Below are positions 213 to 63,941 of a DNA stretch of 64,000 bases, piece after piece. The stretch is taken from NCBI GenBank assembly GCA_965231125.1, contig OZ246414.1:384137-448136 (forward strand). The letters run 5' to 3'. The first letter of the stretch is position 1; every line of letters starts with the position of its first letter. Below the pieces are notes generated by a model. The model had not been told where the DNA came from and did no database searches. It was given only the letters and a program-made list of their open reading frames with translations. The translations under genes and the position numbers were made by a program. This stretch comes from an uncultured Gammaproteobacteria bacterium. Its GTDB lineage: Bacteria; Patescibacteriota; Microgenomatia; Woykebacterales; RBG-16-39-9b.

Positions 213-1451
213 TCAAGGTGCTAGTATTGGGACGTGAAGAAGTACCGAAAGCAAGTAGTAAATTAAAAATAGTACCAAGATTATAAAACCGTAGTAATAC
301 CAAGAGGCTTTTCCGCTTTCTACATCGCGGAAGGTCCAACGACTGTTTACAAGATAGTTAAAGATTAAAACTGCCGGCACGGTTAGAAGTTTAGCAGAAA
401 GATCGTAAATCGAAAATACCTGTAAGAGTATCAAAAAAATAATCTGATTCAGCACATAACCGCCAAGAGAAACGAATTGAAAGATGAAAAACCGTTTAAA
501 AAATGGGTCTTGGATATTGCGTTTTGAGAAAGTCCACAAGTTGTTCCAAAAGAAACTCCAGACTATCGCAACTTCTACAGATATTTGATTGGCATTAATT
601 GAGGCTGCGCCAAAGCTTCTGGTTAGGATGTACAGTGTGCCAATGTCTACAATAGTATTGGTAACACCAACAATAGAAAACTGCCAGAAAGTTCGATAAC
701 GATAGATAAGGTAAAAGATTCGGTCCGTTACCGAGCCGTATTCGTCAGAGTAGAAAAGGCGAATTTTAAACAAGTCCACCAACATTTTTAATGAATCCTT
801 AATTGGGTGCACACTACTGTGGGGGTCGTTGTACCAAAGTACCGGTACTTCGGCTATTTTCAGACCGTGTTTTTTGGCGACGTAAAGAAGCTCAACATCA
901 AACCCAAAATCAAAAATTTTTTGGTTTTTGAATATATCTATGGTAGATTCTCTTTTGAAAAGTTTAAATCCACATTGAGTATCCACGATATCTTTTACGG
1001 TTAGGGTTCGAACTAATATATTAAAACTTCGGCCCATAACTTCCCGCAAGATATTTTGTTTCCTTTTTACGCTTCCTCGTTCCAACGCTCTTGATCCAAT
1101 TGCAATATCATACCCTTGTCTAATTTTGGCTAAAAGTTTTTCGATTTCTTCTATCGGGGTGGAGCCGTCTGCATCTGTAAATAAAACAAAATCCCCAGAA
1201 GAGTTTAGTACGCCTTTGCCAACAGCATAGCCTTTGCCAGCAAGTGGACTTTCCGCCAAACGGAGAATTGCCAGGTTTTTAATTTTTTCAGAAAAACTCT
1301 CGGCCACTTGAATAGTTTTATCGGTGCTGGCATCGTCGACAACAATTACCTCGGTTTCTTCTTTGAAGTTTTTTAAAAAACTAGCAAGTTTTTCTAAAGT
1401 CCGCCCAATTCGTTTTTCCTCGTTAAAAGCAGGAATAATTATAGAAATCAT
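213..1451 (-). CDS. GT2 family glycosyltransferase (dolichyl/polyprenyl-phosphate sugar synthase-like) fused to a C-terminal GtrA-like membrane domain
   Basis: The N-terminus MISIIIPAFNEEKRIGRTLEKL...VVDDASTDKT is a typical GT2 nucleotide-binding region with an acidic-residue motif. The C-terminal ~120 aa form four hydrophobic helices, as in GtrA/polysaccharide-synthesis membrane proteins. Confidence 0.75.
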   Translation of the reverse strand: MISIIIPAFNEEKRIGRTLEKLASFLKNFKEETEVIVVDDASTDKTIQVAESFSEKIKNLAILRLAESPLAGKGYAVGKGVLNSSGDFVLFTDADGSTPIEEIEKLLAKIRQGYDIAIGSRALERGSVKRKQNILREVMGRSFNILVRTLTVKDIVDTQCGFKLFKRESTIDIFKNQKIFDFGFDVELLYVAKKHGLKIAEVPVLWYNDPHSSVHPIKDSLKMLVDLFKIRLFYSDEYGSVTDRIFYLIYRYRTFWQFSIVGVTNTIVDIGTLYILTRSFGAASINANQISVEVAIVWSFFWNNLWTFSKRNIQDPFFKRFFIFQFVSLGGYVLNQIIFLILLQVFSIYDLSAKLLTVPAVLIFNYLVNSRWTFRDVESGKASWYYYGFIILVLFLIYYLLSVLLHVPILAP

Positions 1452-1531: not shown

Positions 1532-2899
1532 ATGGATCCTGCCCAAACCAATACAAATTTAACTTCGCCCGCAACTGCCCAAAATCCACCGCAAGGTGGG
1601 GCTAATCTACAAAAGCCACAGGGTGTATCTAACCAGCCTCAGACAACTGCGGTGCAACAACCCTCTCCCGCTCAACAGGCGGCAAATGGTGTCGGTGCAA
1701 AGCCAGATTACACGAAACCTTATCAAGCAGGCCAAGTCCCTAGTGCTGTCCCTCAAACTCAGGGACAAAAAACTGCCCTTTCACTACTAGACCAACAAAA
1801 CTTAGAGGATATTTTGGTTGGGATTGGTCAGTTGCTGCTTTCCATGCAGATTTATAAAGCAGATCACCCGACTGTTAAGAAAAAGATTACGGATTTGGCT
1901 CTTAAGATAATCAAGACTGCCCAAACCTCCGGTAGGCTTATCTTATCCAACCGGGAAGATCTAATTTTTTTGAACGGTTATCAAGAAAAAGTTTCGGGCG
2001 GTCCCTTACAAAAATTAGTCGACACCTTAAAATTCCTTAAGGTGGCTAGTTTTGAGATTGAGAAAGGTATAACGGAACAGGAAGTAACGCTATTTTTCTC
2101 ACTTTTGGCGGCCCAAAGAAGGGCCCAAGTCACGGGCGATATTAAAGGACAACTGCAAAAAGCTGGCATTTCTCACATCAGACCAATTTTCCTCCAATAT
2201 GTTGAGGTTAATGATCTTGCCAAAGACGTTCCAGAACCTAAAAATGTAATTGAAGGAACCAAGCAAGGTTATAAAAAAAGCGATTACACCGTCGAGGAAC
2301 AAATGATTGGAGATTTCTTGAAGGGTAAAATTGCCACTTTACCAAAGAGGGTAAACACGTTTCTTTTAAATCATCCGAAGCTGGCAGCGCTGGTTTTGAT
2401 AAAACTTTTGGACGAATATCAAATTCAGAACCTGGATAGTTTTTCCGCCTTTCAGACTTACGTTAAATCGCTAAGCCACTATATGGCCCGACTTTCACGA
2501 GTTGTAGGAAATCCGGATAAAGTTGCGCAAGCCCTCGAAAGATTAGAAAAACATTTAAACATTGGGCTTCGGTCGTTAGAAAAAGATAAAAAATTTATTA
2601 CCACCGCGAGACAAGAGATTAAAGATGCTAATTCCTGGGTTCAAATAGAACAAATCCTAAGTCATTATGAGGAAGCCAAGAAAAATCTATCCGCCCAAGA
2701 GCAAGAAATAATCGATGCCATTGAAAAAAGAAAAGTTCCATCTATCCCCGATCTGCGCCAGAGATTAAATGAGTTGGGACTTTTTCAGAGTAAACTGTCT
2801 GCTTATTTTCAAGCCTCGCGACCCGCGGTCGACCTGCCTGCCGGCAAGGCAGGGAAAACGTCGGAAACCCCGACTTCAGTCGGGGAGGACGTTATCTAA
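1532..2899 (+). CDS. Hypothetical cytoplasmic protein with a Pro/Gln/Thr-rich low-complexity N-terminus
   Basis: The 455-aa ORF has consistent coding texture. The first ~90 aa are P/Q/A/T-rich, and the remainder looks helical without TM segments. I recognised no family. The 3' end overlaps the hairpin motif at 2855-2896. Confidence 0.5.
   Translation: MDPAQTNTNLTSPATAQNPPQGGANLQKPQGVSNQPQTTAVQQPSPAQQAANGVGAKPDYTKPYQAGQVPSAVPQTQGQKTALSLLDQQNLEDILVGIGQLLLSMQIYKADHPTVKKKITDLALKIIKTAQTSGRLILSNREDLIFLNGYQEKVSGGPLQKLVDTLKFLKVASFEIEKGITEQEVTLFFSLLAAQRRAQVTGDIKGQLQKAGISHIRPIFLQYVEVNDLAKDVPEPKNVIEGTKQGYKKSDYTVEEQMIGDFLKGKIATLPKRVNTFLLNHPKLAALVLIKLLDEYQIQNLDSFSAFQTYVKSLSHYMARLSRVVGNPDKVAQALERLEKHLNIGLRSLEKDKKFITTARQEIKDANSWVQIEQILSHYEEAKKNLSAQEQEIIDAIEKRKVPSIPDLRQRLNELGLFQSKLSAYFQASRPAVDLPAGKAGKTSETPTSVGEDVI
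2855..2896 (+). repeat. Hairpin element, copy 1: conserved flanks AAAACGTCGGAAACC...AGGACG around a GC-rich stem (CCCCGAC-TTCA-GTCGGGG)
   Basis: The sequence is aaaacgtcggaaaccccgacttcagtcggggaggacgtta. It forms an outer 5-bp stem ACGTC/GACGT, an internal loop GGAAA/AG and an inner 7-bp stem. Copy 2 at 3011 keeps identical flanks but has a completely different, still complementary, inner stem. Confidence 0.6.
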
Positions 2900-2912
2900 C
2901 CGAGTGAGTCAC

Positions 2913-2941
2913 TTGACTTATAGTGCCCGCTGATTTAAAAT
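2913..2941 (+). promoter_or_regulatory. Sigma70-like promoter (TTGACT-17 nt-TAAAAT) for the surface repeat protein gene
   Basis: ttgact lies at 2913-2918, followed by a 17-nt spacer and taaaat at 2936-2941. An 11-nt palindrome agtgagtcact (2903-2913) abuts the -35 element. The implied transcription start site is about 150 nt upstream of the ATG at 3102. Confidence 0.5.
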
Positions 2942-3010
2942 TAAATTAGGATGAAACCTGCCCAACTAATCCGCAACTTTTTATTTTCAAGTCCCGATCA
3001 TCGGGGCGAG

Positions 3011-3052
3011 AAAACGTCGGAAACCGCGGCCTTTAGGCCGCGGAGGACGACA
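3011..3052 (+). repeat. Hairpin element, copy 2: same flanks, inner stem CCGCGGCC-TTTA-GGCCGCGG
   Basis: The sequence is aaaacgtcggaaaccgcggcctttaggccgcggaggacgaca. The inner stem covaries fully relative to copy 1. This copy lies in the 5' leader of the 3102 gene. Confidence 0.6.
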
Positions 3053-3101
3053 TTTAATTTCACTTACCATCTTTGTTTAATTTGTAGCTGGGGGGCTGAA
3101 A

Positions 3102-4298
3102 ATGGCTGTTAATAAGGGCCTACTAGTCACTCTTTTTATTCTGATTGGTTTAGTTGGGGTTTACTTTGCAACCCGCGTAGTTGTGGGCAGTAGTCTAATA
3201 ACTACGAGCCAAATAGCGGATAATGCAGTTACAAGTAGTAAAATTAAGAATGGAACAGTGACGAGATACGATCTTGCTACCAGCACAGTAACCGGGGCTA
3301 GGGTGGCTTCTAATACTTTGACGACTGCGAATATCGCTACCGGGGGAGTTGCCTCAAGCGAAATTTTAAACGGTTCGATTGCTTTCGCCGACTGGGCTTC
3401 GAACAGCTGTTCGGCTGCCGATGTGCCTCAATGGAACGGCTCGGCCTGGACCTGCGCCGCGGTAGGTAACGGTGGTACAGTGACCTCCGTCGCTACCGGT
3501 GCGGGGCTGACAGGCGGACCGATTACACTATCAGGTACCATCAGCATTGCAACCGGGGCGGTTACGTCGGCGATGATAGCCGACGGCACCGTTACATCAA
3601 CCGATATTACCGACAGCACGATAACAACCACCGATATAGCTGCGGACACAATCACTGCGGCGGACATTGCCGCTGGCGGAGTTGGTACAAGTGAGATTGC
3701 TGATGGCACGGTAACCTCAACCGATATTACCGACGGCACGATAACAACCACCGACATTGCCGCGGACACTATCGCCGCTGCCGACATCGCTGCCGGCGCA
3801 GTTGGAACAAGCGAAATAGCCGACGGCACAGTCTCTTCTACCGACATAGCTAACGGAACAATTGCCACAGTTGATATTGCTGCCAACGCGGTAGATACAA
3901 GTAAGCTTTCTTTGGCAGCCTCGATTCAAAGCGTGCAGGTTCAGGTTGGGGATGTGGCCGCGGGTACAGATAAAGAAATACCTGTTTTTGTAGGTCCAAT
4001 AACCCAAGCCTCAACGATTGTGCGTGTTTCCTACATAAATGCGTCAAATATCACGGCAAACGGCACTGATTACACCACCCTTTCTCTGGAACGTAAGTCT
4101 GCTGTAGCAGGGCAGACTTCCAGTGTAAGCACTAGTGTCACAAGTTTAACCGCTTTTATTGCAAGTGTGGACATCACTCTTGCTAACAAAACGGTTGCTT
4201 CAGCGGACGTTTATTCCTTTAAAAAGGCTGATACTGGTGCTGGACAGGCGATAGATGATATGCTGGTAACGATAGATTATGTAGTTGCCGAGCCTTAA
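3102..4298 (+). CDS. Membrane-anchored surface protein with tail-fibre-like repeats (..IADGTVTSTDITDGTITTTDIAADTI..)
   Basis: The N-terminal signal anchor is MAVNKGLLVTLFILIGLVGVYFA. The body is made of about 10-aa units of the form xxxIAxxAVTxxKIxxGxVT, the pattern seen in phage tail-fibre repeats, organised into three ~40-aa super-repeats. A good Shine-Dalgarno ggggggctgaaa precedes the ATG. The C-terminal ~130 aa are non-repetitive. Confidence 0.7.
   Translation: MAVNKGLLVTLFILIGLVGVYFATRVVVGSSLITTSQIADNAVTSSKIKNGTVTRYDLATSTVTGARVASNTLTTANIATGGVASSEILNGSIAFADWASNSCSAADVPQWNGSAWTCAAVGNGGTVTSVATGAGLTGGPITLSGTISIATGAVTSAMIADGTVTSTDITDSTITTTDIAADTITAADIAAGGVGTSEIADGTVTSTDITDGTITTTDIAADTIAAADIAAGAVGTSEIADGTVSSTDIANGTIATVDIAANAVDTSKLSLAASIQSVQVQVGDVAAGTDKEIPVFVGPITQASTIVRVSYINASNITANGTDYTTLSLERKSAVAGQTSSVSTSVTSLTAFIASVDITLANKTVASADVYSFKKADTGAGQAIDDMLVTIDYVVAEP
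3581..3860 (+). repeat. Intragenic tandem DNA repeat, 120-bp unit, about 2.3 copies
   Basis: Unit starts fall at 3581, 3701 and 3821 (cgacggcacc / tgatggcacg / cgacggcaca). Units are roughly 85-90% identical by eye and encode the 40-aa super-repeat of the surface protein. Confidence 0.8.
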
Positions 4299-6318: not shown

Positions 6319-6391
6319 TTGGGAAATCTTTGAGTGTTTAGTTTAAGGGATGTACTTATCAGGCGAGAATTTGTATATTGGAAGTAAAGGT

Positions 6392-7306
6392 ATGAGCAAA
6401 AAATACATACTTGCATTGTTTATTACTCTCCTTCTTGGGTTAGTACTGTCAGCTACACTTTTTTTCCGCGGTCACACCGTTGCAGTTTTTGATCCAAAAG
6501 GAATAGTAGCTCTACAAGAGCGCAACCTCATTATCTTCGCTTTACTACTATCTTTAATTGTCGTCATTCCAGTCTTTGTTCTGACTTTTGTTTTCGCCTG
6601 GAAGTTTCGGGAAGGTAGGGAAGAAAAGTATGATCCGGACTCGAACCACAGCCGGTGGTTGGAGTTCTTTTGGTGGGCGATTCCTGCCACTGTTATTCTC
6701 GTACTTGCGATCGTAACCTGGAGAGGCACTCATGCACTCGATCCACGTAAACCAATTGAGACTTCCGAGAAGCCTGTCACGATACAGGTGGTAGCGCTGC
6801 GATGGAAGTGGCTCTTTATCTACCCGCAGCAGAATATTGCCACAGTCAACTTTATTCAGTTTCCGGCTCGTACTCCGATTAATTTTGAGCTAACCGCCGA
6901 TGCTCCGATGAATTCATTTTGGATTCCGCAACTTGGCGGTCAGATATACGCGATGGCAGGGATGAGGACGCAGCTGCACCTCATGGCCTCCGAACCGGGG
7001 GAATTTGCCGGCTCAGCTGCCGAGATAAGCGGCCGGGGATTTGCGGGAATGAAGTTTACCGCGAAAGCGAGTTCGGTTGCGGATTTTGACGCGTGGGTAG
7101 GGTCCGTTAGAGGGTCACCAAATGTGCTTATTATGGATGAGTATAATAAACTCTCGCAGCCTAGTGAAGATAGTCCGGTCTCTTACTACTCGTGGGTTGA
7201 TCCGGGTCTTTATGACAGCGTTGTGATGAAATACATGATGCCTACCATGCCGGCAGGCGCACAAATGCCGAGCATGCAGAATATGAATATGGGGGGTTCG
7301 TACTGA
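6392..7306 (+). CDS. cyoA: Cytochrome bo3-type ubiquinol oxidase subunit II
   Basis: The protein has a signal/TM region and two TM helices followed by a cupredoxin-like domain ([54 protein letters not shown]). Subunits I, III, IV and a heme O synthase follow directly. I prefer a start at MSKKY (6392) over the track start 6350 because of Shine-Dalgarno spacing. Confidence 0.8.
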
Positions 7307-7308
7307 CG

Positions 7309-9303
7309 ATGGATAATCTTACCAGTATACTTTTTGGAAAACTAACACTTGAGGCGCTTCCTCACGAGTGGTTTACACTTGGGGCAACGTTTTCCATAAC
7401 CGCCGCAGGACTCGGCGTTGCGGTTCTTTTGACGTATTTTAAACGTTGGAAGTGGCTTTGGCGTGAGTGGCTCACGTCGACCGATCCCAAAAAAATCGGG
7501 GTTATGTACATTGTTGTCGCGTCTCTTATGCTCATACGGGGCGGGCTCGATGCCGTAATGATCTGGCTTCAGCAGACACTATCGGTTGGGTCTTCACACG
7601 GATATCTCACAGCTGACCATTTTCAGCAAATCTTTACGGCTCACGGTAACATAATGGTTTTCTTCGTTACCATGGGCTTTTTGTTCGGACTGATAAATAT
7701 CATCGTACCTTTGCAAATTGGCGCGCGAGACCTTGCTTTTCCATTTTTGAACAGCCTAGGTTTTTGGTTGTATGTCGCGGGCGCAGTGCTCATCAACCTA
7801 TTTTTTGTTTTAGGCGGCCAGTTCGCCGCGACTGGATGGCTCGCGGTTACACCACTTTCGGAGATGCAGTTTAGTCCTGGCGTCGGAGTTGATTATTGGA
7901 TCTGGAGCTTACAAGTGTCCGGACTGGGAACACTCCTGGGTGGTATTAATTTCTTCGTAACAATTCTCAAGATGCGCGCTCCGGGCATGACACTCGCGCG
8001 CATGCCGCTGTTCACTTGGACCTCGCTTTGTAGCATGGTGCTGGTTATTACTGTCTTCCCGATACTTACTGTCACGACTCTGCTACTATTTTTAGATCGT
8101 TTTTTCGGTATGCACTTCTTTACTGCCGGTGGTGGGGGAAACGCAATGATGTACATCAACCTTATCTGGATGTGGGGTCATCCTGAAGTCTATATTCTGA
8201 TACTGCCAACTTTTGGCGTCTACTCCGAAATAGTTTCTACGTTTAGTCAAAAGAGATTAGCCGGATACGTTTCGATGGTGGCTGCCGCGATCGGTATCAC
8301 TATTCTCTCTTTATCAGTGTGGTTGCACCACTTCTTTACAATGGGTGCCGGAGCGGACGTGAACGCCTTTTTCGGCATGATGACTATGGTGATTGCAATA
8401 CCTACGGGAGTACAAGTTTTCAATTGGCTCTCCACCATGTATAAAGGGCGCATCCGCTTTTTCACTCCGATGCTTTGGTTCTTCGGTTTTATTAGTACGT
8501 TTACAATAGGTGGGGTAGCTGGGGTGCTGATGGCAGTGCCACCAGCTGATTTTCAAGTTCACAATAGTTTATTTCTCGTTGCGCATTTCCATACCATGGT
8601 GATTGGTGGCGCACTTTTTGGTATTTTTGCAGCTATCACCTACTGGTTTCCTAAGGTCACGGGGTTCAAGTTGAATGAGCGGCTTGGCAAGTACGCCTTC
8701 TGGTTTTGGATCGTCGGGTTCCTGACAGCCTTTATACCGCTTTACATTTTGGGGCTAATGGGCGCAACTCGCCGGTTGGATCATTACGCCGCCTCTACCG
8801 GTTGGCAATCTTTGTTTATGGTTTCGCTACTGGGCTCTATCATTATCGTATTCGCCGTCGCTCTCCAGGCGCTGCAAGTGATTGTGAGTATCAAACAAAG
8901 AAAACAAAATACCGATACTACCGGAGACCCGTGGAACGGTCGAACACTCGAGTGGTCAACTGCGTCTCCTCCATCAGCTTACAACTTTGCGGTTATACCC
9001 GAAGTACACGGCCGCGATGCGTTTTGGGAGATGAAAAAAGAGACCAGTGACAAGAACCAAGTGACAAGCATAAGCTATGAAGACATTGTTATGCCAAAAA
9101 ATACTCCAATGGGTATTTATGTTGCCGGGTTTGTCTTTCTTATTGGATTTGCTTTTGTCTGGCACATTATCTGGCTTGTTTTTGTTGGTATCATTGGTGC
9201 GATAATCTGTGTCATCATCCGGACGTTCGATGAAGATACTGAATATGTAATACCGGCCGCTGAAGTTGCTAAAATTGAAGAGGGGAGAACCTCGGGTGGG
9301 TAA
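7309..9303 (+). CDS. cyoB: Cytochrome bo3-type ubiquinol oxidase subunit I (heme-copper oxidase catalytic subunit)
   Basis: The 664-aa ORF is polytopic. It carries the signature [23 protein letters not shown] and the His ligands (HHFFTMG..., [14 protein letters not shown]). The start is 3 nt after the cyoA stop, with Shine-Dalgarno ggggggt. Confidence 0.92.
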
Positions 9304-9859
9304 ACACGACACGAATGATAAAACCATCTTCGGATTTTGGGTCTATTTAATGACCGACCTTATAGTGTTTGCAGCTCTTTTTGCTACGTTTGCAGTACTT
9401 CGTAATAACACTTTTGGCGGGCCAGGGGGTCGTGAAATCTTCAACATGCCAAATGTTTTAATCGAGACTCTAATATTGCTAACTAGTAGTTTTACTGCTG
9501 GTCTTGCAATACTCTCTGCCCATCGCAATGACAAAAACCAGGTGATTTTCTGGTTTGGTATAACCTTTTTGTTGGGGCTAGCCTTTTTAACGATGGAGCT
9601 AACTGAGTTCAGAAAGTTAGTCGCTGAGGGTAACAGTTGGCAACGGAGCGGCTTCTTGTCTTCATTCTTTACACTAGTGGGCACGCACGGACTGCACATT
9701 ACGGCTGGCCTAGTTTGGATGGCTGTCCTTTTGATAAAAGTTGTAATAAGTGGTCTTAACTCGTCCAACACTCGCAAATTAACCCTTTTGAGTTTGTTTT
9801 GGCATTTCTTGGATATTGTGTGGATTTTCATATTTACGATAGTATATTTAACGGCATGA
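9296..9859 (+). CDS. cyoC: Cytochrome bo3-type ubiquinol oxidase subunit III
   Basis: [27 protein letters not shown] matches the CyoC N-terminus, and there are 5 TM helices. The likely start is GTG 9296, which has Shine-Dalgarno aggggag 8 nt upstream and overlaps the cyoB stop. The track ORF begins at TTG 9266. Confidence 0.8.
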
Positions 9860-10206
9860 ACGATAAAGGAACAACTAAATTATATGTCTTTGGGTTTGCG
9901 CTTTCGATTTTGCTTACTCTAGCGGCCTATTTTTCTGTGGTGAACAAGCTCTTTAGCGGAATGATATTAACTGCTTTCATCACCGCTTTAGCGCTTGTTC
10001 AACTCATGGTTCAGCTAATTTTCTTTTTGCATCTTGGGCAAGAATCAAAGCCGCGCTGGAAGCAAGCTATTTTTCTATCCACAGTTTCTATTATCCTTGT
10101 CATAATAATAGGGTCACTGTGGATTATGAGTAATTTAAATTATCATAATATGAGCCCAGGCGATACCAATAACTACATTCTCAAAAACGAAGGAATCTAC
10201 CACTAA
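9856..10206 (+). CDS. cyoD: Cytochrome bo3-type ubiquinol oxidase subunit IV
   Basis: [26 protein letters not shown] has the CyoD-like three-TM architecture. The ATG overlaps the cyoC TGA (ATGA at 9856-9859). Confidence 0.75.
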   Translation: MNDKGTTKLYVFGFALSILLTLAAYFSVVNKLFSGMILTAFITALALVQLMVQLIFFLHLGQESKPRWKQAIFLSTVSIILVIIIGSLWIMSNLNYHNMSPGDTNNYILKNEGIYH

Positions 10207-10215
10207 CTTTTGAAG

Positions 10216-11070
10216 ATGCTTAAAACGTATTACGCACTAACCAAACCCGGAATTATTTATGGGAATCTTGTAACCGCCGCTGCCGGTTTTTTCCTCGCAT
10301 CAAGGGGTCACATAAATTTCTGGTTACTACTAGCAACTCTTTTGGGAACATCTTTGGTTATTGCTTCTGCTTGTGTATTTAATAACTATTTTGACCGCGA
10401 TATTGACTCTCTTATGGCGAGAACCAAAAATCGTGCCTTCGTAAAGGGGTTAGTCTCCTTTCGCGCCGGGATTACTTACGCAATTTTCCTCGGAGTTTTA
10501 GGGTTTTTGGTCTTGGTGAGGTACACCAACCTTCTGACGGCATTTGTCGGACTAATTGGATTCTTTGATTATGTGGTCTTGTATACTTTTTTAAAACGCA
10601 GTTCAATTTACGGGACTATCATTGGTAGTATTTCAGGTGCAACACCTGTGGTTGCTGGTTACACAGCTGTAACTAATCATTTTGACGTGGGCGCGGCTTT
10701 ATTATTTTTGATTTTAGCTCTCTGGCAGATGCCGCATTTTTATGCGATTGGGATTTACAGATTAAAAGATTATGCTGATGCGGGAATCCCAATATTGCCG
10801 GTCAAAAAAGGTATTCCAGAGACCAAGATCCAAATGCTCTTTTATATCCTTGCTTTTACTGTTGCGACCGCCGCGCTAACTGTGTTTGGCTATACTGGCT
10901 ACACTTATCTAGTCACTGTGCTCTTTCTATCCTTGGCGTGGCTTTGGTTAGATGTCAGAGGTTTTCGCTCGACCAATGATCAGGCCTGGGCGCGCAAAAT
11001 GTTTCTGTTCTCACTGGTAATTATATTTGCATTCTCGATTATGATTTCAGTGGGTGGAGTTTTACCTTAG
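10216..11070 (+). CDS. cyoE: Protoheme IX farnesyltransferase (heme O synthase)
   Basis: MLKTYYALTKPGIIYGNLVTAAAGFFLAS is typical of the UbiA-family CyoE/CtaB proteins, with their Asp-rich motifs. It lies directly downstream of cyoD. Confidence 0.88.
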   Translation: MLKTYYALTKPGIIYGNLVTAAAGFFLASRGHINFWLLLATLLGTSLVIASACVFNNYFDRDIDSLMARTKNRAFVKGLVSFRAGITYAIFLGVLGFLVLVRYTNLLTAFVGLIGFFDYVVLYTFLKRSSIYGTIIGSISGATPVVAGYTAVTNHFDVGAALLFLILALWQMPHFYAIGIYRLKDYADAGIPILPVKKGIPETKIQMLFYILAFTVATAALTVFGYTGYTYLVTVLFLSLAWLWLDVRGFRSTNDQAWARKMFLFSLVIIFAFSIMISVGGVLP

Positions 11071-11090
11071 AGGGTGTATAATAATTTTAA

Positions 11091-11360
11091 ATGATATTAC
11101 TTTTTCATATAGTGGTTGCTCTGACAAGCCTAGCCTACAGTGGATATCTCTTCTTCAAACCTTCAAAGTCTGGGTTGAACATAGCTTACGCTTTGGTTGC
11201 CGCCACTTTGGCCAGTGGGACTTATTTAGTAGTAGGCTCTGGCCACTTGGTCTCAGCCTGCGTTTCTGGGTTAGTTTATCTCGCCTTTGTCTTACCAGCG
11301 ATAGTTGCTGCACGTAACAAGTTGGCTAGTATAGTAAACGAGGAAAAAGATCTCCCCTAA
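11091..11360 (+). CDS. Small membrane protein (3 TM helices), last gene of the cyo operon
   Basis: The 89-aa ORF is hydrophobic and starts 20 nt after the cyoE stop. Its function is unknown. Confidence 0.4.
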   Translation: MILLFHIVVALTSLAYSGYLFFKPSKSGLNIAYALVAATLASGTYLVVGSGHLVSACVSGLVYLAFVLPAIVAARNKLASIVNEEKDLP

Positions 11361-11455
11361 ATTGCTTCTTATCCAATAGACTTCTCCTGAAGTTTATTTA
11401 TGTGTCAGTCTATCTACTGAACTGCAAAGTTTGAGATACTTGTTTCATATAAAGT

Positions 11456-11487
11456 TCAAAATAAAAGGCCCGAAGGGGAATCTTCGG
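11456..11487 (-). terminator. Intrinsic terminator for the minus-strand gene 11512..11940
   Basis: The hairpin CCGAAG-gggaat-CTTCGG (11470-11487) is preceded on the + strand by aaaataaaa, which is a U-run on the minus-strand RNA. Confidence 0.55.
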
Positions 11488-11511
11488 ACCTAGATTGTCG
11501 TGACTGTGTGT

Positions 11512-11940
11512 TCAGGCTAGGAGACCTGGGCGAGGAGTGTCGTAACCCAGGCTCAGCGCCCAATCGATGATCTCTCGGGCTCTTTGTTCGTTTTCCTCCA
11601 GGATGACGGACTCGTTAATTTCGGAAATCCAGGCGAAAAAAGTATCTGGAAGCCTGGCGTGGCCTTTTCCCGGACCGTCAACTCTATTGAAACCTTCGTG
11701 TTCATAATCATTCGGGGTATCCGGCGTGAGTCGGTGTTGGTAAGCCCAGCCGAGTAGAGTTTTTTCGTCCGCAGACAATTTCAGGATGTTAGCGACTGTT
11801 GTTTGGTGTCCTTCCTCCCCAACAAAAGCATGCCCGCAAGCAATTATGGCCCTACCGCCGGGCCAAAGAAGTTGCATCGCCTCCTCAAGTGGGATCTTTT
11901 CTCCGATGATCTCCTCCGGTGTGTCCGCCGGGTTTTCCAC
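11512..11940 (-). CDS. Hypothetical protein, compositionally foreign (high GC)
   Basis: The 142-aa ORF is acidic. Its local GC is clearly higher than the flanks (roughly 55% by eye). A strong Shine-Dalgarno ggaggaaacaa precedes the ATG. I recognised no family. Confidence 0.5.
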   Translation of the reverse strand: MENPADTPEEIIGEKIPLEEAMQLLWPGGRAIIACGHAFVGEEGHQTTVANILKLSADEKTLLGWAYQHRLTPDTPNDYEHEGFNRVDGPGKGHARLPDTFFAWISEINESVILEENEQRAREIIDWALSLGYDTPRPGLLA

Positions 11941-12280
11941 TTGTTTCCTCCTTCCGAAAACTATTCAGCATTTTAACATTTTCTTGTTTTCGTAGCAAGG
12001 AAATTACGTATCTGCCAAGCTTTAATAGAGGTGATGATATTTTAGGCTCTATCTTTGGCTAAATTTTCTTGAGAAAGCTTAGCTTCCTTGATGAGTTGGC
12101 GAGTTGATTAACCCGCACTTCTTGAAGTGCTAGTTTAGTGGTACAACATTAGGTTGAGAGTAAAAGAGTTCTGCTCGGGGACGAATGTTTCTTATTTTAG
12201 TTTGGAAATTAGAGTGAGGCACAACAAAACGTCTTGGTCATCTAGCTCACCGATGCCAAAAAATTACTTTTAATCTTTAC

Positions 12281-13231
12281 TTACTGTTTCGACAGTAAAG
12301 TTTCTTTCACTACTGCTGCTAACGCTTGGATAAATAATGGCGAGTCGTTTAGGGATGTGGTCCGAGAAAACTGGAGACCGTGTTTTTCTGCTTGTTCGCG
12401 GGCGGCAATATCAATATCATACAAAATCTCGAGATGATCAGCTAAAAACTGGATTGGAGCGATGAGTACATGAGTGTGTCCTTTTTCTCGTAATTCTGGC
12501 ATAATATCAGCAAGGTCAGGCTTGAGCCATTCCTCCGGTGTATGTCCTGCACTTTGATAGCAAAACACCCATCTTTCATTTGGCAGTCCGACTGCTTTTG
12601 CTACGGCGGCGGCTGTTTCTTTGAGTTGATTAATGTAATCCGGTTCTTTAGCAATTACACGCCTTGGCATGCTGTGGGCAGAAAAAAGGACAGGGGTGTT
12701 TTCTGGTAAATTATTTAATCCTTGCTGTACTTTTTGAGCCAATGCTTGAACAAAGTGTGGTTGTAAATGCCAGCCTGTAGCAATTTTTAACTCGAAATTA
12801 GCTTTGTTTAATTTTGCAGCTGCTTGTTCCAACTCCTTTCTATAACCGTCCATAATAATCGGTGAATATTGCGGTGACATGATTATGCCAATCAACTCTT
12901 CGGTATCACTGGTAAACCTCTGAGTAATTTCGGTAATAAACGGTTTGGAAAAACGCATACCAGCCTTAACTTGAAAGGTTGGTCCGTCCGGATGTTGTTT
13001 GTTTAATTCTTTTTGCAAAGCGGCGGCTTGTTTTTGTGTGGTTGGTATTAAGGGTGAGCCGCCAATGAGCTTGTAGCGTCGACGAAATTCAGCAATGACT
13101 TCGGCTCTTGACTCTCGTCCACCATAGATACTTTTGAGGTAACCGGGAATTTCGTTTAGTGAGGCTGGTGAACCGTAAGTCATCAGGAGGACGCCCACTT
13201 TTTGTTTTGTGGCGTTCTTCTTTATGACCAT
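12281..13231 (-). CDS. hemH: Ferrochelatase (coproporphyrin ferrochelatase type)
   Basis: MVIKKNATKQKVGVLLMTYGSPASLNEIPGYLKSIYGG aligns with the ferrochelatase N-terminus. The later segment IAPIQFLADHLEILYD is also conserved. I chose the ATG at 13231, internal to the longer TTG-initiated track ORF. Confidence 0.88.
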   Translation of the reverse strand: MVIKKNATKQKVGVLLMTYGSPASLNEIPGYLKSIYGGRESRAEVIAEFRRRYKLIGGSPLIPTTQKQAAALQKELNKQHPDGPTFQVKAGMRFSKPFITEITQRFTSDTEELIGIIMSPQYSPIIMDGYRKELEQAAAKLNKANFELKIATGWHLQPHFVQALAQKVQQGLNNLPENTPVLFSAHSMPRRVIAKEPDYINQLKETAAAVAKAVGLPNERWVFCYQSAGHTPEEWLKPDLADIMPELREKGHTHVLIAPIQFLADHLEILYDIDIAAREQAEKHGLQFSRTTSLNDSPLFIQALAAVVKETLLSKQ

Positions 13232-13265
13232 AGTATCGTTGGGTATAACAATCAATAAGTAAAAT

Positions 13266-14246
13266 TTACTTGTTTTGCAGCCATCGAGCAACTTGCGGAG
13301 CAAAGTAGCTGATGATAATATCTGCTCCGGCTCGTTTAATGCTTGTTAAGATTTCCATAACAATTCGCTGTTCGTCAATCCAGCCATTTTTTGCAGCAGC
13401 TTTTACCATAGAATATTCACCACTGACATTATAGGCAGCAATCGGGAGATCAAACTGCTCCCGAGCTTTTGCAATAACATCTAAATATGCAAGTGCTGGC
13501 TTAACCATGATAATATCAGCTCCCTCGGCAATATCAAGCTCTATCTCGCGTAAGGCCTCGCGTACATTTGCTGGGTCCATTTGATATGATTTCCTATCCC
13601 CAAATTGCGGTGCTGATTGTACTGCTTCACGAAATGGTTCGTAAAATCCGGAAGAGTATTTTGCGGAATATGCCATGATTGGTACTCGAGTAAAATTATT
13701 ATTGTCTAAAATTTTTCTTATCGCACCAACCCGTCCATCCATCATATCTGATGGTGCAACCATATCAGCACCTGCCCGCGCATGAGAAAGCGACATCTGA
13801 GAAAGTAATTTGAGCGATTCGTCGTTTTGCACAACGCCGTCTTTTACAACCCCACAATGGCCATGATCGGTATATTCACAAAGACAAACATCTGTAATAA
13901 TTAGCAGCTCTGGTATATTTGATTTCAGAAGACGGATTGTTCTTTGGATAATGCCATCTTCATTATACCCTTGGGAACCAACCTCATCTTTTTTTGTAGG
14001 TATTCCGAAAAGTAAAACAGCACCAATCCCAAGTTTAGCAACACGTTCTGCTTCTTTTTCAACAGAGTTTAATGGCCACTGAAAGATACCAGGCATAGAT
14101 TGGATCTCTTGTGGTTTTTTTGCCTCCTCGGAAATAAATAGTGGATAAATAAAGTCCGATACGGATAACCTTGTTTCCTTTACTAATTTTCTAAAATGAT
14201 CGTTTTGTCGTAACCTGCGAAGACGGGTAGTTGGGAAAGTAGACAT
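13266..14246 (-). CDS. hemB: Porphobilinogen synthase (delta-aminolevulinate dehydratase)
   Basis: RLRRLRQNDHFRKLVKETRLSVSDFIYPLFI is the HemB N-terminal signature. The protein is 326 aa, with an active-site lysine-containing stretch (IMVKPALAYLDVI). Confidence 0.92.
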   Translation of the reverse strand: MSTFPTTRLRRLRQNDHFRKLVKETRLSVSDFIYPLFISEEAKKPQEIQSMPGIFQWPLNSVEKEAERVAKLGIGAVLLFGIPTKKDEVGSQGYNEDGIIQRTIRLLKSNIPELLIITDVCLCEYTDHGHCGVVKDGVVQNDESLKLLSQMSLSHARAGADMVAPSDMMDGRVGAIRKILDNNNFTRVPIMAYSAKYSSGFYEPFREAVQSAPQFGDRKSYQMDPANVREALREIELDIAEGADIIMVKPALAYLDVIAKAREQFDLPIAAYNVSGEYSMVKAAAKNGWIDEQRIVMEILTSIKRAGADIIISYFAPQVARWLQNK

Positions 14247-14313
14247 TTGTATGAGTAGTATATTTGCTTATTTCATTTCCTGCAATAATTTTGTAAGATA
14301 TTTTTCAAATAGC

Positions 14314-15240
14314 ATGGGTATTCATAAAATAATAATCGGAGCAAGAGGTAGTAAACTTTCTTTAATTCAAACTGACATTGTGAAAAATAAACTACAGGCA
14401 CTTTTGCCGGGTATCGAGATTATTGTACAAGTTATCACCACAAAAGGTGATAAAGACATGAGCCCGGTTCCGCTTGATAGTATTGGGAAAGGATGGTTTA
14501 CCCGAGAGATTGATAAAAGTCTCCTTGGGGGATCGATCGATTTAGCTGTTCATAGCTTGAAGGATTTACCCGAAACGTTAGAGGAAGGGTTGATTATTGC
14601 TGCAATACCGCAGCGGGAAGATGCAAGAGAGGCGATGGTATCAAAAACTGGAGTCTCCTTCGACAAACTTAGAAAAGGTGCAATAATTGGAACAGACAGC
14701 ACTAGGAGAGGCTCACAAATCTTAAACAGAAGAGCGGACTTAGTTATCAAAAGTCTTCGAGGAAGTGTGATTACGCGGCTGGAAAAACTAGAACGAGAAG
14801 ATTATGATGCAATTTTTTTGGCTGTTGCTGGACTCAAAAGGCTTGGGCTTGAGGAAAGAATTACAGAATATTTTGAGGCAGTTGATTTTATTCCTTCACC
14901 TGGACAAGGAGCACTCGCACTGGTGACTAAAAAAGATAGTATTAAGCTGAACACATTACTTCAAAAGCTTAATCACGAGAAAACTGTAATTGCAGTAAAA
15001 GCAGAGCGCGCCTTTTCAGATGCAATTGGAGGTGGTTGTAAAATGCCAGTCGGTTCATATGCCGAAATTGATGGAGAGAGACTTGTAATCTATGCTTTTA
15101 TTGGTTCCTTAGATGGTAGAAATGTCGATAAAGATTCAATAGAAGGTGATATTACAAAGCCTGTTGAATTGGGGACTGCTCTAGCAGATAAACTAATAGA
15201 ACAGTGCAAACCTTGGTATACCAAAGAAAATGACCGATAA
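14314..15240 (+). CDS. hemC: Hydroxymethylbilane synthase (porphobilinogen deaminase)
   Basis: MGIHKIIIGARGSKLSLIQTDIV is the HemC N-terminus. The cofactor-binding Cys region is GGGCKMPVG. The gene is divergent from hemB. Confidence 0.9.
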   Translation: MGIHKIIIGARGSKLSLIQTDIVKNKLQALLPGIEIIVQVITTKGDKDMSPVPLDSIGKGWFTREIDKSLLGGSIDLAVHSLKDLPETLEEGLIIAAIPQREDAREAMVSKTGVSFDKLRKGAIIGTDSTRRGSQILNRRADLVIKSLRGSVITRLEKLEREDYDAIFLAVAGLKRLGLEERITEYFEAVDFIPSPGQGALALVTKKDSIKLNTLLQKLNHEKTVIAVKAERAFSDAIGGGCKMPVGSYAEIDGERLVIYAFIGSLDGRNVDKDSIEGDITKPVELGTALADKLIEQCKPWYTKENDR

Positions 15241-15982
15241 CTATATTGTTATTACCCGCCCACTTGAAGATGAGAAAACTTTTTCAAAACAGTTGGAAGA
15301 AATAAACATACAGATTTTTTTGTATCCAACAATTCAAATTAAAAAAAACACGTTAACAGGAGTTGAAAAAGAAGCAGTAAAAAAATTAGATACTTTTGAT
15401 TGGATACTATTTACAAGTAAAAACGGCGTCCGCTATTTACTGGATGTTTTGGATGGGTTGGGCGTAAATCCATCACTCCTTAACCATAAAAAAATTGGTG
15501 CAGTAGGACCAAAAACTGCTGAAGAGCTTAAGGCTAATGGTTTAACAGTTGATTTTATGCCTGCTCAATTTACAACAGAGGCGTTAGCAAAAGAATTTCC
15601 TGAAGTAAAGGCACAAAATATACTGCTACCACGTGCCGATATTGCAAGCGAAACCTTAACAAAGCTCTTAACTAGGAGGGGCGCAAAAGTCACAAATATT
15701 CCTATTTATAAAACCGAATATCGAGTCAAACCCAATCAGGGGTTTGAGAAACTTTTAAATGAGCACAAGATTGCATATATTACTTTTACTAGCCCATCAA
15801 CAATTCACGGATTTTTTAATAGTCTGAATAAAGAATCAAATCCATCTGTCTTATCGGTTCCAGTTCTTGCTATTGGCCCAGTAACGGAAAAAACCGCCAA
15901 AAAAGAGGGTTTTACGTCTGTGTTTGTAGCTGACACATTCACCACCGAGGGGATGATAAAAAAACTCAAGGAAATAGTGTAG
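15230..15982 (+). CDS. hemD: Uroporphyrinogen-III synthase
   Basis: The 250-aa ORF overlaps hemC by 11 nt. The N-terminus YIVITRPLEDEK and the two-domain pattern fit HemD. Confidence 0.75.
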   Translation: MTDNYIVITRPLEDEKTFSKQLEEINIQIFLYPTIQIKKNTLTGVEKEAVKKLDTFDWILFTSKNGVRYLLDVLDGLGVNPSLLNHKKIGAVGPKTAEELKANGLTVDFMPAQFTTEALAKEFPEVKAQNILLPRADIASETLTKLLTRRGAKVTNIPIYKTEYRVKPNQGFEKLLNEHKIAYITFTSPSTIHGFFNSLNKESNPSVLSVPVLAIGPVTEKTAKKEGFTSVFVADTFTTEGMIKKLKEIV

Positions 15983-15995
15983 AATTTATAAACGT

Positions 15996-16649
15996 ATGCA
16001 GTATCATAATTACATTTTTTTAGCCTCTAATTCTGGGTTGCGCGATCTTTCACAAAAAAATCTGCTTAGTTATAAAAAAGAGTTTATTAAGATACTGAAA
16101 ATAAAAAAAGATGTCATCATCAATACCTATGCCACGATCGGTTTAAAGGTAAACACGAACATTTTGCTTTGGTTTCAATCCGATTCGTTAGAGGATCTCC
16201 AAGATCATCTTAATACGCTAATGCAAACCAACTTAGGCAAGTGCCTTACCATTACTCACACTCTGTTTGGGTTAACCCGTCCTACCCAATATTCTCCAAA
16301 ATCAACTGGGTATTTGGAAACAGACCGCAAAGGAGGTAAGTATTTGATTATTTATCCTTTTTCAAAAACTAAAGAATGGTACCAATTAGACTACGATACT
16401 CGTAGGAATCTTATGGGAGGACACGTAACGTTTGGCAAAAAACACCCAAAAATCACTCAACTTCTTCTTTATTCATACGGTGTTGATGATAATGAATTTA
16501 TCGTTTCCTATGAAACAGATGGTTTATCCGATTTTCAAACTTTAGTTATGGAACTTAGGTCGGATAAAGTACGTGCATATACCCTCAAAGATACACCAAT
16601 TTTTACCTGCATCTATAAATCCGCAGGAGAGATTTTAGACTATCTATGA
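15996..16649 (+). CDS. hemQ: Chlorite-dismutase-family coproheme decarboxylase (HemQ/ChdC)
   Basis: The 217-aa ORF contains YLIIYPFSKTKEWYQLDYDTRRNLMGGHVTFGKKH...YSYGVDDNEFIVSYETD, characteristic of HemQ-type proteins. It sits between hemD and hemE. Confidence 0.7.
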   Translation: MQYHNYIFLASNSGLRDLSQKNLLSYKKEFIKILKIKKDVIINTYATIGLKVNTNILLWFQSDSLEDLQDHLNTLMQTNLGKCLTITHTLFGLTRPTQYSPKSTGYLETDRKGGKYLIIYPFSKTKEWYQLDYDTRRNLMGGHVTFGKKHPKITQLLLYSYGVDDNEFIVSYETDGLSDFQTLVMELRSDKVRAYTLKDTPIFTCIYKSAGEILDYL

Positions 16650-61102: not shown

Positions 61103-61294
61103 TTATGCATTGGTGGTGGGTATTCGATCAGTGTCTCGTGGCTCTCTATCTAGCAGTTCTTGGCGTAGAACTGGGATGTCCAGCGGTGCTGAAATTCCGA
61201 GTTTCACTCTATCTCTTTCCACGCCGAGAACTCGCACGATGATGTTCCCGGAGATCACAATTCCCTGGTCGATCTTCCTTGTGAGCACTAACAT
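61103..61294 (-). CDS. csrA: Carbon storage regulator CsrA (RNA-binding translational regulator)
   Basis: MLVLTRKIDQGIVISGNIIVRVLGVERDRVKLGISAPLDIPVLRQEL fits the CsrA consensus (MLxLTRK...VxVLxV...VxLGIxAP..xxxxRxE). The protein is 63 aa. Confidence 0.85.
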   Translation of the reverse strand: MLVLTRKIDQGIVISGNIIVRVLGVERDRVKLGISAPLDIPVLRQELLDREPRDTDRIPTTNA

Positions 61295-63254: not shown

Positions 63255-63941
63255 TTACTTGGCTAGGTCTCGGGGTTTGGGGCCGTCGTACTCGACTTCG
63301 TCTTCTTCGATTCTACGCACAGGTTTCTCTCTTGTTTTTTCTTCATGTACATGCGCAACTAAGCCGGCGATTCGACTAATAATAAAAAATCCATTACCGA
63401 GAGCAGAATCAAACCCTAGCTCACTCATTACGGCTGCTGTTATACCATCTATATTCAAACAAAGTTTGCGGCCAACTGCTTTTTCCAATTCCTTTTCGAT
63501 TTCTAACGCCATAGAGATGTGTGGTCCTTTAAAACCTTGCTTTTCCGCAACCTCCAAAATTGCTTGAGTTCTTGGGTCTGTCTCGTAAATTTTATGGCCA
63601 TATCCCGGTAGTCTATCGCTCTTAAATCTAGCTTTTTCGACAATGTCGGCGGCTTTTAAGTCCTTTTTGACGGCATCTTGGAAAATTTTTGCCGCCGCCT
63701 CAATCGCACCACCATGGCTCTCGCCAATTGCGGCTACGCCATTGGCAACAGCCGTTGATAAAGGAACGCCACAAGAGGCCGTAATCCTGGCCACAGTAGT
63801 AGACGGAGCCTCAACTCCGTGGTCAATCGAAGCAACTAAAATAGCGTTCATTAGTGCTTCTTCTTTTTCGTCCGGAAGTTCACCCTTTAAGATAAGAAAA
63901 ATAGCTTGCGTGAAATTTAATTTTTTGAGCATATCGGTCAA
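63255..63941 (-). CDS. Citrate synthase-family protein (C-terminal catalytic half; probably truncated by the window edge, or a short citryl-CoA-lyase-like form)
   Basis: ...ILVASIDHGVEAPSTTVARITASCGVPLSTAVANGVAAIGESHGGAIEAA... matches the citrate synthase active-site region, including the HGGA(N)E motif. The reading frame stays open upstream to position 64000, although an in-frame TTG with a Shine-Dalgarno aagagga exists at about 63940. Confidence 0.55.
   Translation of the reverse strand: MTDMLKKLNFTQAIFLILKGELPDEKEEALMNAILVASIDHGVEAPSTTVARITASCGVPLSTAVANGVAAIGESHGGAIEAAAKIFQDAVKKDLKAADIVEKARFKSDRLPGYGHKIYETDPRTQAILEVAEKQGFKGPHISMALEIEKELEKAVGRKLCLNIDGITAAVMSELGFDSALGNGFFIISRIAGLVAHVHEEKTREKPVRRIEEDEVEYDGPKPRDLAK

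Follow-up and report, generated by a model that had tools for sequence, protein, structure and literature searches.

Short hairpin-bearing insertions in a Woykebacteria-like genome resemble gene-less IS200/IS605-family derivatives

Two short hairpin-bearing sequences, designated c1 (2807-2895, + strand) and c2 (2985-3053, + strand), lie at the junction of two genes in a 64-kb stretch of contig OZ246414.1 (positions 384,137 to 448,136; the whole stretch is referred to as the window). Each copy is a discrete insertion. Together with two related copies located outside the window, c3 and c4, they are read here, with a probability of about 0.5, as gene-less, terminal-only derivatives of the IS200/IS605 family (IS1341/TnpB type), similar to the palindrome-associated transposable elements (PATEs). 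The element adds a low-copy member, from a phylum that has been little studied, to an established class of selfish DNA, and is no regulatory RNA.

The two copies in the window share their architecture. The 89-nt c1 comprises TTTCAAG, two small GC hairpins, AAAA, an imperfect palindrome and a 3'-terminal TTAT (2892-2895), the candidate right-end cleavage motif. Its variable left-hand region (2816-2853) was resolved by folding and a hairpin census into two hairpins, (T)CGCG-ACC-CGCG(G) at 2816-2828, also found in c4, and CCTGCC-GGCAA-GGCAGG at 2837-2853, unique to c1. The AAAA (2855-2858) stands 5' of the palindrome foot, the position of the guide sequence in IS608-type ends. The subterminal imperfect palindrome (2859-2891) consists of an outer stem CGTC/GACG, an internal loop of GGAAA opposite AG, an inner stem CCCCGAC/GTCGGGG and the loop TTCA. 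The 69-nt c2 begins with TTTCAAG, the hairpin GTCCCGA-TCA-TCGGGGC and GAGAAAA, followed by the palindrome CGTC-GGAAA-CCGCGGCC-TTTA-GGCCGCGG-AG-GACG and a terminal ACAT; it is situated in the 5' leader of the open reading frame (ORF) 3102-4298. All of these features are on the + strand.

An earlier note on this DNA had described two hairpin units here, and their sequences were confirmed as described. The core of c1 (2854-2891) reads GAAAACGTCGGAAAC-CCCGAC-TTCA-GTCGGG-GAGGACG and that of c2 (3010-3049) reads GAAAACGTCGGAAAC-CGCGGCC-TTTA-GGCCGCG-GAGGACG, both on the + strand, so that GAAAACGTCGGAAAC, a GC hairpin and GAGGACG are common to both. The repeated unit is therefore present, but its extent had been drawn too small, since both copies further have TTAT|TTTCAAG upstream, an additional hairpin of variable sequence and NNAT at the 3' end. 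An exact shared 14-mer occurs at only 2 sites in the 64-kb window, namely c1 and c2. A covariance model run with filters off gave these sites scores of 70 and 80 bits (E ~1e-20 and ~1e-24), and no further window site exceeded 18 bits. Perfect GC-rich hairpins of at least 6 bp are otherwise nearly absent, with 2 others in 64 kb. The resemblance of c1 and c2 is far beyond chance.

The inner stems had been said to differ at every position while staying complementary. The first half of this claim was not borne out, since 5 of the 8 positions are common (aligned CC[C/G]CG[A/G][-/C]C); the second half was, as all three differing positions are compensated, by two substitutions and one base-pair indel. 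When three copies were compared, 4 of the 8 inner pairs changed on both sides and 100% of the cells stayed paired, and the 4-bp outer stem (CGTC/GACG) was invariant. The covariation is thus real and points to selection on a folded single strand; the regulatory-RNA reading attached to it is not supported.

That c1 is an insertion was established from the gene that it interrupts, ORF1 (1532-2899). Homologues of ORF1 were found only in genomes close to Candidatus Woykebacteria (Candidate Phyla Radiation, CPR; Patescibacteria). The window locus itself is present in three metagenome contigs, in which the element region is identical. Alignment of 14 homologues (49-66% identity) showed that all terminate in ..(S/K)xY(L/F/I)(N/K)x*. 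A 28-aa C-terminal tail, ASRPAVDLPAGKAGKTSETPTSVGEDVI, which is translated element, was present in the window ORF1 protein and in none of the 14. In-silico removal of 2807-2895 changed the end of ORF1 to ..QSKLSAY|LTE* (428 aa), which is homologue-like, and the rebuilt junction TTATCTAA agrees with TATCTAA, TATCTGA and TATCTTA of relatives. The TTAT directly 5' of c1 (2803-2806, + strand), a candidate target or transposon-adjacent motif, belongs to native ORF1 codons (..GCT TAT, encoding A Y), and the Tyr that it encodes is conserved in homologues. The earlier note had placed the first copy in the last codons of ORF1, which is true; the insertion displaced the native stop codon, and the displaced end, CTA ACC GAG TGA, is found between c1 and c2 (2896-2907, + strand).

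The restored ORF1 end and its match with the relatives' junction indicate that the DNA between the copies (2896-2984, + strand) is native, and this segment aligns to the gene end, promoter and leader of relatives. In six relatives, the region downstream of the ORF1 homologue contains a promoter-like TTTACA-N17-TAAATT, a leader of ~35 nt and a gene for a small membrane protein, and the leader at this place reads TTAAATTAG..CTGCCC. A promoter scan of the window located a sigma-70-like TTGACT-17-TAAAAT at 2913-2941 (+ strand), and the TTAT preceding c2 (2981-2984, + strand) ends the start of the native leader. Empty-site junctions in this genome would read GCTTAT|CTAACCGAG and TTTTTAT|TTAATTTCAC. 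The element was absent from the homologous loci in 6 of the 6 relatives examined. By these insertions, c1 would have replaced the last 3 codons of ORF1 with 31 element-encoded codons, and c2 would lengthen the leader of the surface-repeat gene at 3102-4298 by 69 nt that form stable hairpins. Both window copies are probably relics, whose consequences for the host would be no more than side effects.

The surface-repeat gene (3102-4298, + strand) deserves a description of its own. Its GC content rises to 61% against a background of ~40%, and it encodes T/D/I/A-rich tandem repeats of 30/40 aa (DNA periods of 120 nt and 90 nt) with no Pfam match. The N-terminus of the relatives' small membrane protein corresponds to that of the ORF 3102 product. 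As this N-terminal anchor corresponds to the start of the relatives' ~100-aa protein, the repeat body looks like a lineage-specific addition.

A third copy was recovered from a metagenome contig of the Joint Genome Institute (JGI) derived from another Woykebacteria (c3, L029 587-649). It is a 63-nt insertion directly at the stop codon of a gene that is unrelated to the window genes and encodes a 72-aa membrane protein, and it lies upstream of an AHSA1-family gene; the native ending of the 72-aa family is ..AYF*. The filled site reads GCTTAT[63 nt]TTTTAACC, and the corresponding empty site, GCTTATTTTTAACC, was found in the closest relative (87% identity), Ca. Woykebacteria RBG_16_44_10 (L043). 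This exact empty site is explained without any target duplication, and elements of 63-89 nt, the size range of the copies, are too short to encode a transposase.

The fourth copy, c4 (L001/L002 375-444, + strand), is in the same genome as c1 and c2, 8.0-8.1 kb left of window position 1, and scored 33.8 bits with the covariance model. Its sequence is TTAT|TTTCGAG..GAGAACGACGGAAAC-CGCGACT-TTTA-GGTTGCG-G-GTACG-TAAT. It lies between convergent polyprenyl-synthase and tsaE genes, and the called tsaE ORF passes through it. Half of the outer stem is destroyed, and the inner stem is kept by one compensated pair and two G.T pairs. Judged from these changes, c4 appears to be a decaying relic, as expected of a stranded copy rather than of a host-selected RNA.

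Wider searches added no other copy. The covariance model found none in ~7 kb right of the window. The exact-core pattern gave 11 matches in 185,579 GTDB species genomes, all of them chance and none with the hairpin; 0 and 5 matches in viral contigs, the latter chance; and 19 matches in JGI metagenome contigs, 1 of which was a true copy (c3). Within the window, a regex match at 11912-11948 (- strand) proved to be the start of a 142-aa ORF with its ribosome-binding site, and near-matches at 60553 and 60679 lie within the recO coding sequence; none of the three is a copy.

Comparison of the four copies defined a common layout. The 5' part consists of the TTAT flank, TTTYRAG, one or two small GC hairpins that are variable, a linker (GGCGA)G and AAAA; the 3' part consists of CGTC, GGAAA, a 7-8-bp stem with a TTCA or TTTA loop, AG, GACG and an NNAT tail. 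The tetraloops are UUCA, UUUA, UUCA and UUUA, and the right end can be written as CGTCGGAAAC-hairpin-GAGGACG-NNAT. No terminal inverted repeats were found when the two ends, TTTCAAG.. and ..GAGGACGTTAT, were compared. The subterminal imperfect palindrome folds in all copies. In DNA folds of c2 and c3, the A-tract pairs with the 5' TTTY of the element (TTTC-GAAA in c2, TTTT-AAAA in c3), and the foot of the palindrome brings both termini together. All four copies fold better on the + strand, and the decayed c4 folds above shuffled background on that strand only.

TTAT is directly 5' of the copy in 4 of 4 cases, against a background of 0.0073 per position. The right-end tetranucleotides are TTAT (c1), ACAT (c2), TCAT (c3) and TAAT (c4), so that all four deviations from TTAT are at right ends, the left side being invariant. 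This asymmetry favours a flanking target and an element end over a target-site duplication. A target duplication of 8-10 bp (TTATTTTY) was also considered and fits c3 only. As an IS608-style guide for TTAT, AAAA agrees with the left site in 4 of 4 copies and with the right site in c1; c4 has AGAA at this place. By analogy with the IS608 pair AAAG/TTAC, we infer that TTAT would be the site specified by the AAAA at the foot. The three copies in this genome are all on the + strand, whose GC skew is positive across the whole window, indicating that the + strand is the lagging-strand template.

In the mechanism proposed, the top (+) strand, when single-stranded on the lagging-strand template, would fold, and the 5' TTTY would pair with RAAA so that the 5' and 3' ends meet at the palindrome foot. 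A Y1 HUH transposase acting in trans would recognise the palindrome by its shape and by its conserved unpaired bases, GGAAA opposite AG. Cleavage would take place 3' of the flanking TTAT and 3' of the terminal NNAT, and the excised strand would be pasted 3' of another TTAT without target duplication. On this scheme, the unpaired core and the stem geometry would stay fixed because the enzyme reads them, and stem pairs would change only in a compensated fashion because lineages that stay mobile need complementarity.

Each of these properties has a counterpart in known systems. The ends of IS200/IS605 elements and PATEs have subterminal imperfect palindromes and no inverted terminal repeats, insert 3' of a tetra- or pentanucleotide without duplication, and are strand-specific; in IS200/IS605 ends, structure rather than sequence is recognised and a 4-nt guide lies 5' of the hairpin foot (PMC3201880, PMC10055086, PMC3119063). 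In IS608, the guide AAAG recognises the cleavage site TTAC (PMC3201880). ISGst2 has the target motif TTTAT with a flexible spacing between motif and guide, and PATE-like elements occur in Geobacillus (PMC10055086). The PATEs of Haloquadratum include 52-bp terminal-only forms, still apparently mobile, and form heterogeneous families (PMC3119063). The element described here is like PATEs in lacking coding capacity and terminal inverted repeats, in its near-terminal palindrome and short conserved 5' oligonucleotide, in not requiring a target duplication, in the heterogeneity of its copies, in strain-specific insertions with exact empty sites and in size (52-89 nt). It differs from them in its CPR host (Patescibacteria, Woykebacteria-like), in its very low copy number, in that a cognate IS or TnpA was not identified, and in having a single conserved palindrome with a 5-nt by 2-nt internal loop and a left hairpin that is variable in sequence and number. 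With the ends of IS608 and ISDra2 (PMC3201880) it shares top-strand hairpins, insertion 3' of a tetranucleotide and a candidate 4-nt guide at the foot. In IS608, by contrast, there is a pair of similar palindromes, and cleavage falls 19 nt and 10 nt away from the respective foot, whereas the element has one conserved palindrome, a 3' site abutting the foot, and guide/cleavage-site complementarity in part of the copies.

A further likeness was found to the archaeal HgcC RNAs. Gomes-Filho et al. described the HgcC hairpin, with its 8-bp stem and UUCA loop (variant UUUA), as the right-end palindrome of IS1341-type tnpB elements, and an HgcC-type hairpin is also part of a PATE-derived RNA (PMC4615843). 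Thermococcus HgcC RNAs start within transposase genes (PMC4247193). Among the three copies scanned with Rfam HgcC (RF00062), c2 scored 22.8 bits (E 0.0027), c1 12.3 and c3 20.0, with an alignment that spans the 5' hairpin, the 3' tetraloop module and both flanks only. The element agrees with HgcC, the sense overlapping transcripts (sotRNAs) and the 'RE-like tetraloop' (PMC4615843, PMC4247193) in its 7-8-bp GC stem, its UUCA/UUUA loop, the flanks GU(C/U)GGAA(A)C and GAGGA(C/G)GUCA in the covariance-model alignment, and the orientation to the top strand. It differs in its score (12-23 bits against a gathering score of 50), in missing the ~50-nt HgcC middle, and in its setting, as HgcC is archaeal and usually overlaps the 3' end of tnpB and no tnpB accompanies the element.

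Several observations weigh against an IS200/IS605 origin. No Y1 transposase, TnpB, IscB, integrase or reverse transcriptase was found in the 64-kb window and ~15 kb of flanks, which cover ~9% of the 915-kb genome, and no full-length or autonomous IS with this right end was seen in the exact-core scans of the GTDB genomes and JGI metagenomes. The HgcC scores are far under the gathering score, and the phage hairpins described below, picked by an element-derived pattern, score alike on HgcC, so the similarity may be generic. The 3' tetranucleotide agrees with the proposed AAAA guide in c1 only, YRAG, the tetranucleotide 5' of the left hairpin, does not predict TTAT, and an element end of NNAT leaves room for a 4-bp TTAT duplication made by another enzyme. 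The + strand also codes for most genes here, by which the strand bias is confounded with gene orientation. Finally, the copy number is tiny, with 3 copies in ~80 kb of this genome and 1 elsewhere.

The same observations bear on the alternatives. Another kind of mobile miniature element, either a unit like the repetitive extragenic palindromic (REP) sequences served by a REP-associated tyrosine transposase (RAYT) or a 4-bp TTAT duplicator, with the likeness to IS200/IS605 being convergent, is possible if rather unlikely. It would account for the solid insertion status and for the lack of a transposase in the window and flanks, and TTAT on both sides of c1, together with matches at 2-3 of the 4 positions in the remaining copies, is compatible with a decayed 4-bp duplication. 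In REPs, too, a conserved tetranucleotide precedes a variable palindrome on the 5' side (PMC3333891), and REPs and bacterial interspersed mosaic elements (BIMEs) with RAYT are mechanistically akin to IS200/IS605 ends. On the other side, the four TTAT deviations all lie on the right, and the lack of terminal inverted repeats leaves no place for a classical DDE-type miniature inverted-repeat transposable element (MITE). REPs and BIMEs are, moreover, high-copy and strictly extragenic, often form inverted pairs, carry GTAG-type heads and have no defined insertion at TTAT; here 3 direct copies in ~80 kb were found, one of them inside a reading frame, with no GTAG head and no RAYT seen. Of the identities listed in the earlier note, a REP/MITE-like family is the best supported. 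The others, a processing site or a cis-regulatory RNA such as a site where an RNA-binding protein coordinates the two genes, are not supported: the element is absent from the homologous loci of six relatives, it is inserted at unrelated genes in two Woykebacteria genomes, once with an exact empty site, and c4 is decaying. A module spread by insertion and then kept for an effect on mRNA, as a terminator-like or stabilising hairpin or a leader attenuator, is a separate proposal, in which it would close ORF1 transcripts and tune the surface-repeat gene; we consider it, and the roles given to it, unlikely. It draws on the position of c1, c3 and c4 at gene 3' ends and of c2 in a 5' leader, on the orientation of the copies (3 of the 4 are co-directional with the touched gene, and c4 is sense to the upstream gene and antisense to the TsaE ORF), on the G-U-compatible stem changes of c4 on the + strand, and on the transcription and phenotype of PATE-derived RNAs in Halobacterium (PMC4615843). 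It also draws on the consensus fold of an A-tract, a long hairpin and a U-rich tail, with the c3 hairpin followed by UCAUUUUU; UCAUUUUU derives from the target site, and c3 is the sole copy with such a 3' sequence. Absence at orthologous loci, loss of the outer stem in c4 and the lack of any Rfam family above threshold speak against the module, and so do the missing U-tract of c1, the failure of a scan to find a + strand terminator and the ordinary terminators that this genome uses elsewhere, for example after the 142-aa ORF at 11512.

Kinship with a family of phage hairpins in 5' untranslated regions, in which an outer stem, GGAAA, an inner stem with UUCA, and AGGAA form a translation-initiation structure, was judged very unlikely. 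The element-derived pattern gave at least 120 matches in viral contigs; among the matches listed, 51 of 120 have a perfect or near-perfect inner stem; a variable outer stem, which was not separately counted, is visible in the printed flanks. One of the two true-hairpin loci scanned (L157) reached 22 bits with HgcC. Much of this likeness, however, is imposed by the search pattern, the 3' internal loop is AGGAA rather than AG, and the gene-sense phage strand reads UCCUCC..GGUUUCC with an AUG 13-22 nt downstream in 38 of 51 (13-18 nt in 35) among the matches listed, whereas the gene-sense strand in the window is the reverse complement of the phage one and no start codon follows. A CsrA site with two GGA motifs coordinating the two genes is less probable still. 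The genome does encode CsrA (61103-61294, - strand), and the unpaired CGGAAAC and GAGGACG provide two GGA motifs ~25 nt apart, but these are outside the hairpin loops, the second is partly within the outer stem and is lost in c4, both lie clear of the Shine-Dalgarno sequence of ORF 3102, at a distance of 50 nt, and the insertion polymorphism speaks against a host regulatory site. Local tandem duplication of a gene end and hairpin followed by drift is effectively refuted. The copies are 156-178 nt apart and TTATTTTCAAG is upstream of both, and the earlier note had proposed that relatives without the element would favour this origin; that test fails here, since the spacer is a native gene end and promoter, with leader, that aligns with relatives, and related copies occur at two unrelated loci (c3 and c4), one of them in another organism. 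Drift, in addition, would not keep 29 core bases identical while the stems change only as compensated pairs.

Other known structures were compared with the element and set aside. An integron attC site is alike in its conserved short flanks, its palindrome conserved in structure and variable in sequence, and its recognition as folded single-stranded DNA; it is unlike in that the element occupies scattered TTAT sites rather than attI and neither an integron integrase nor a cassette array is present. The RYYYAAC/GTTRRRY cores are also missing, the flanks being CGGAAAC and GAGGACG, and c2 is without GTT. A classical DDE-dependent MITE was rejected for want of terminal inverted repeats. A scan of 2600-3300 found no Rho-independent terminator on the + strand, and no minus-strand gene reads into the element for a terminator on that strand to serve. 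No curated cis-regulatory RNA or riboswitch matched at gathering level by Rfam in the window. Small ribozymes including hammerhead, and the K-turn, guanidine-II, NAD+ and other riboswitch cores, did not fit the conserved bases by eye and had no Rfam match.

The phage hairpins are of interest in themselves. This intergenic hairpin is widespread among the matches listed (viral loci L050-L169; e.g., L072 673-701, L093 8615-8643 and L129 1394-1422) and consists of a variable outer stem, GGAAA, CC..stem..TTCA..stem..GG, AGGAA and the outer stem. The gene-sense RNA would read Shine-Dalgarno, outer stem, UUCCUCC, stem, UGAA, stem, GGUUUCC, outer stem, ~8 nt and AUG; a long ORF on the opposite strand begins at the distances given above. 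A Shine-Dalgarno-like GAAAGGAGG lies just beyond the hairpin, by which the ribosome-binding site appears to be split by it. The ORF start is nearly always ATGA, and the same ~75-nt cassette is found upstream of many unrelated phage genes. The opposite gene orientation argues against reading the window element through these hairpins. The phage contig L072 also carries a HEARO RNA (RF02033, 139 bits; IscB/IsrB omega-RNA) at 355-572 (+ strand), 100 nt upstream of the hairpin cassette; this HEARO match is followed by a 66-aa ORF and not by an IscB gene. It is conceivable, as a distinctly speculative idea, that GGAA(A)C, an 8-bp stem, UUYA and GAGGA represent an ancient cross-domain right-end unit of IS200/IS605 elements, shared by archaeal HgcC/sotRNAs, CPR mini-elements and phage cassettes; the phage form would then have been domesticated as a spacer between Shine-Dalgarno and start codon, and the 63-nt Woykebacteria form, in which the foot of a single palindrome joins both termini, would be a near-minimal substrate for guide-directed single-strand transposition.

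Near the c3 locus, the AHSA1-family gene of two Woykebacteria has a GC-rich long-range hairpin in its 5' leader, immediately before the ribosome-binding site, and the hairpin is a different one in each: CCGCCT..AGGCGG in L043 (10310-10390), CCCTCC..GGAGGG in L029 (735-780). Elsewhere in the window, a quinol-oxidase-type operon at 6350-17665 encodes COX2 with a COX_ARM motif, COX1, COX3, COX4_pro and a UbiA heme-O synthase, and the same interval holds a near-complete heme pathway (ferrochelatase, ALAD, porphobilinogen deaminase, HemD, a chlorite-dismutase-like HemQ and URO-D). This respiratory and heme capacity is unusual for Patescibacteria. A single-strand cluster at 35528-58297 is devoted to the synthesis of nonulosonic (sialic-like) acid and polysaccharide, with NeuB, a CMP-transferase, a DegT aminotransferase, a pyruvyl transferase, a Wzy-like protein, a flippase, many GT4 and Bac_transf. 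The CsrA homologue is a 63-aa protein (PF02599, L171 gene table) encoded between recO and a class-II aminoacyl-tRNA synthetase gene. Three adjacent split genes of the ATP-citrate-lyase-like/citryl-CoA type (63255-63941, - strand, and L170 9786-12705) comprise a citrate-synthase C-terminal domain, a CoA-ligase and an ATP-grasp_2 with Citrate_bind, a trio unexpected in a 0.9-Mb CPR genome. A stand-alone 23S_rRNA_IVP/bAvd four-helix-bundle gene (L001 4931-5287, - strand) is flanked by prfA-like and ftsE-like genes at ~3.2 kb to the left of the window, with no reverse transcriptase nearby.

These results remove a false lead, as the hairpin pair is no new riboregulator. Perfect covariation with identical flanks can arise from selfish single-stranded DNA elements that are read as folded DNA, and genome scans for structured RNA need to exclude such elements. 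A full-text literature search found no paper on repeat elements in Patescibacteria. If the reading of c1-c4 as PATE-like IS200/IS605 derivatives is right, they exemplify how debris of the IS200/IS605 type can alter a protein C-terminus and a 5' leader in a CPR genome of ~0.9 Mb. If the single-palindrome form can be mobilised, it would be a very small substrate for peel-and-paste transposition.

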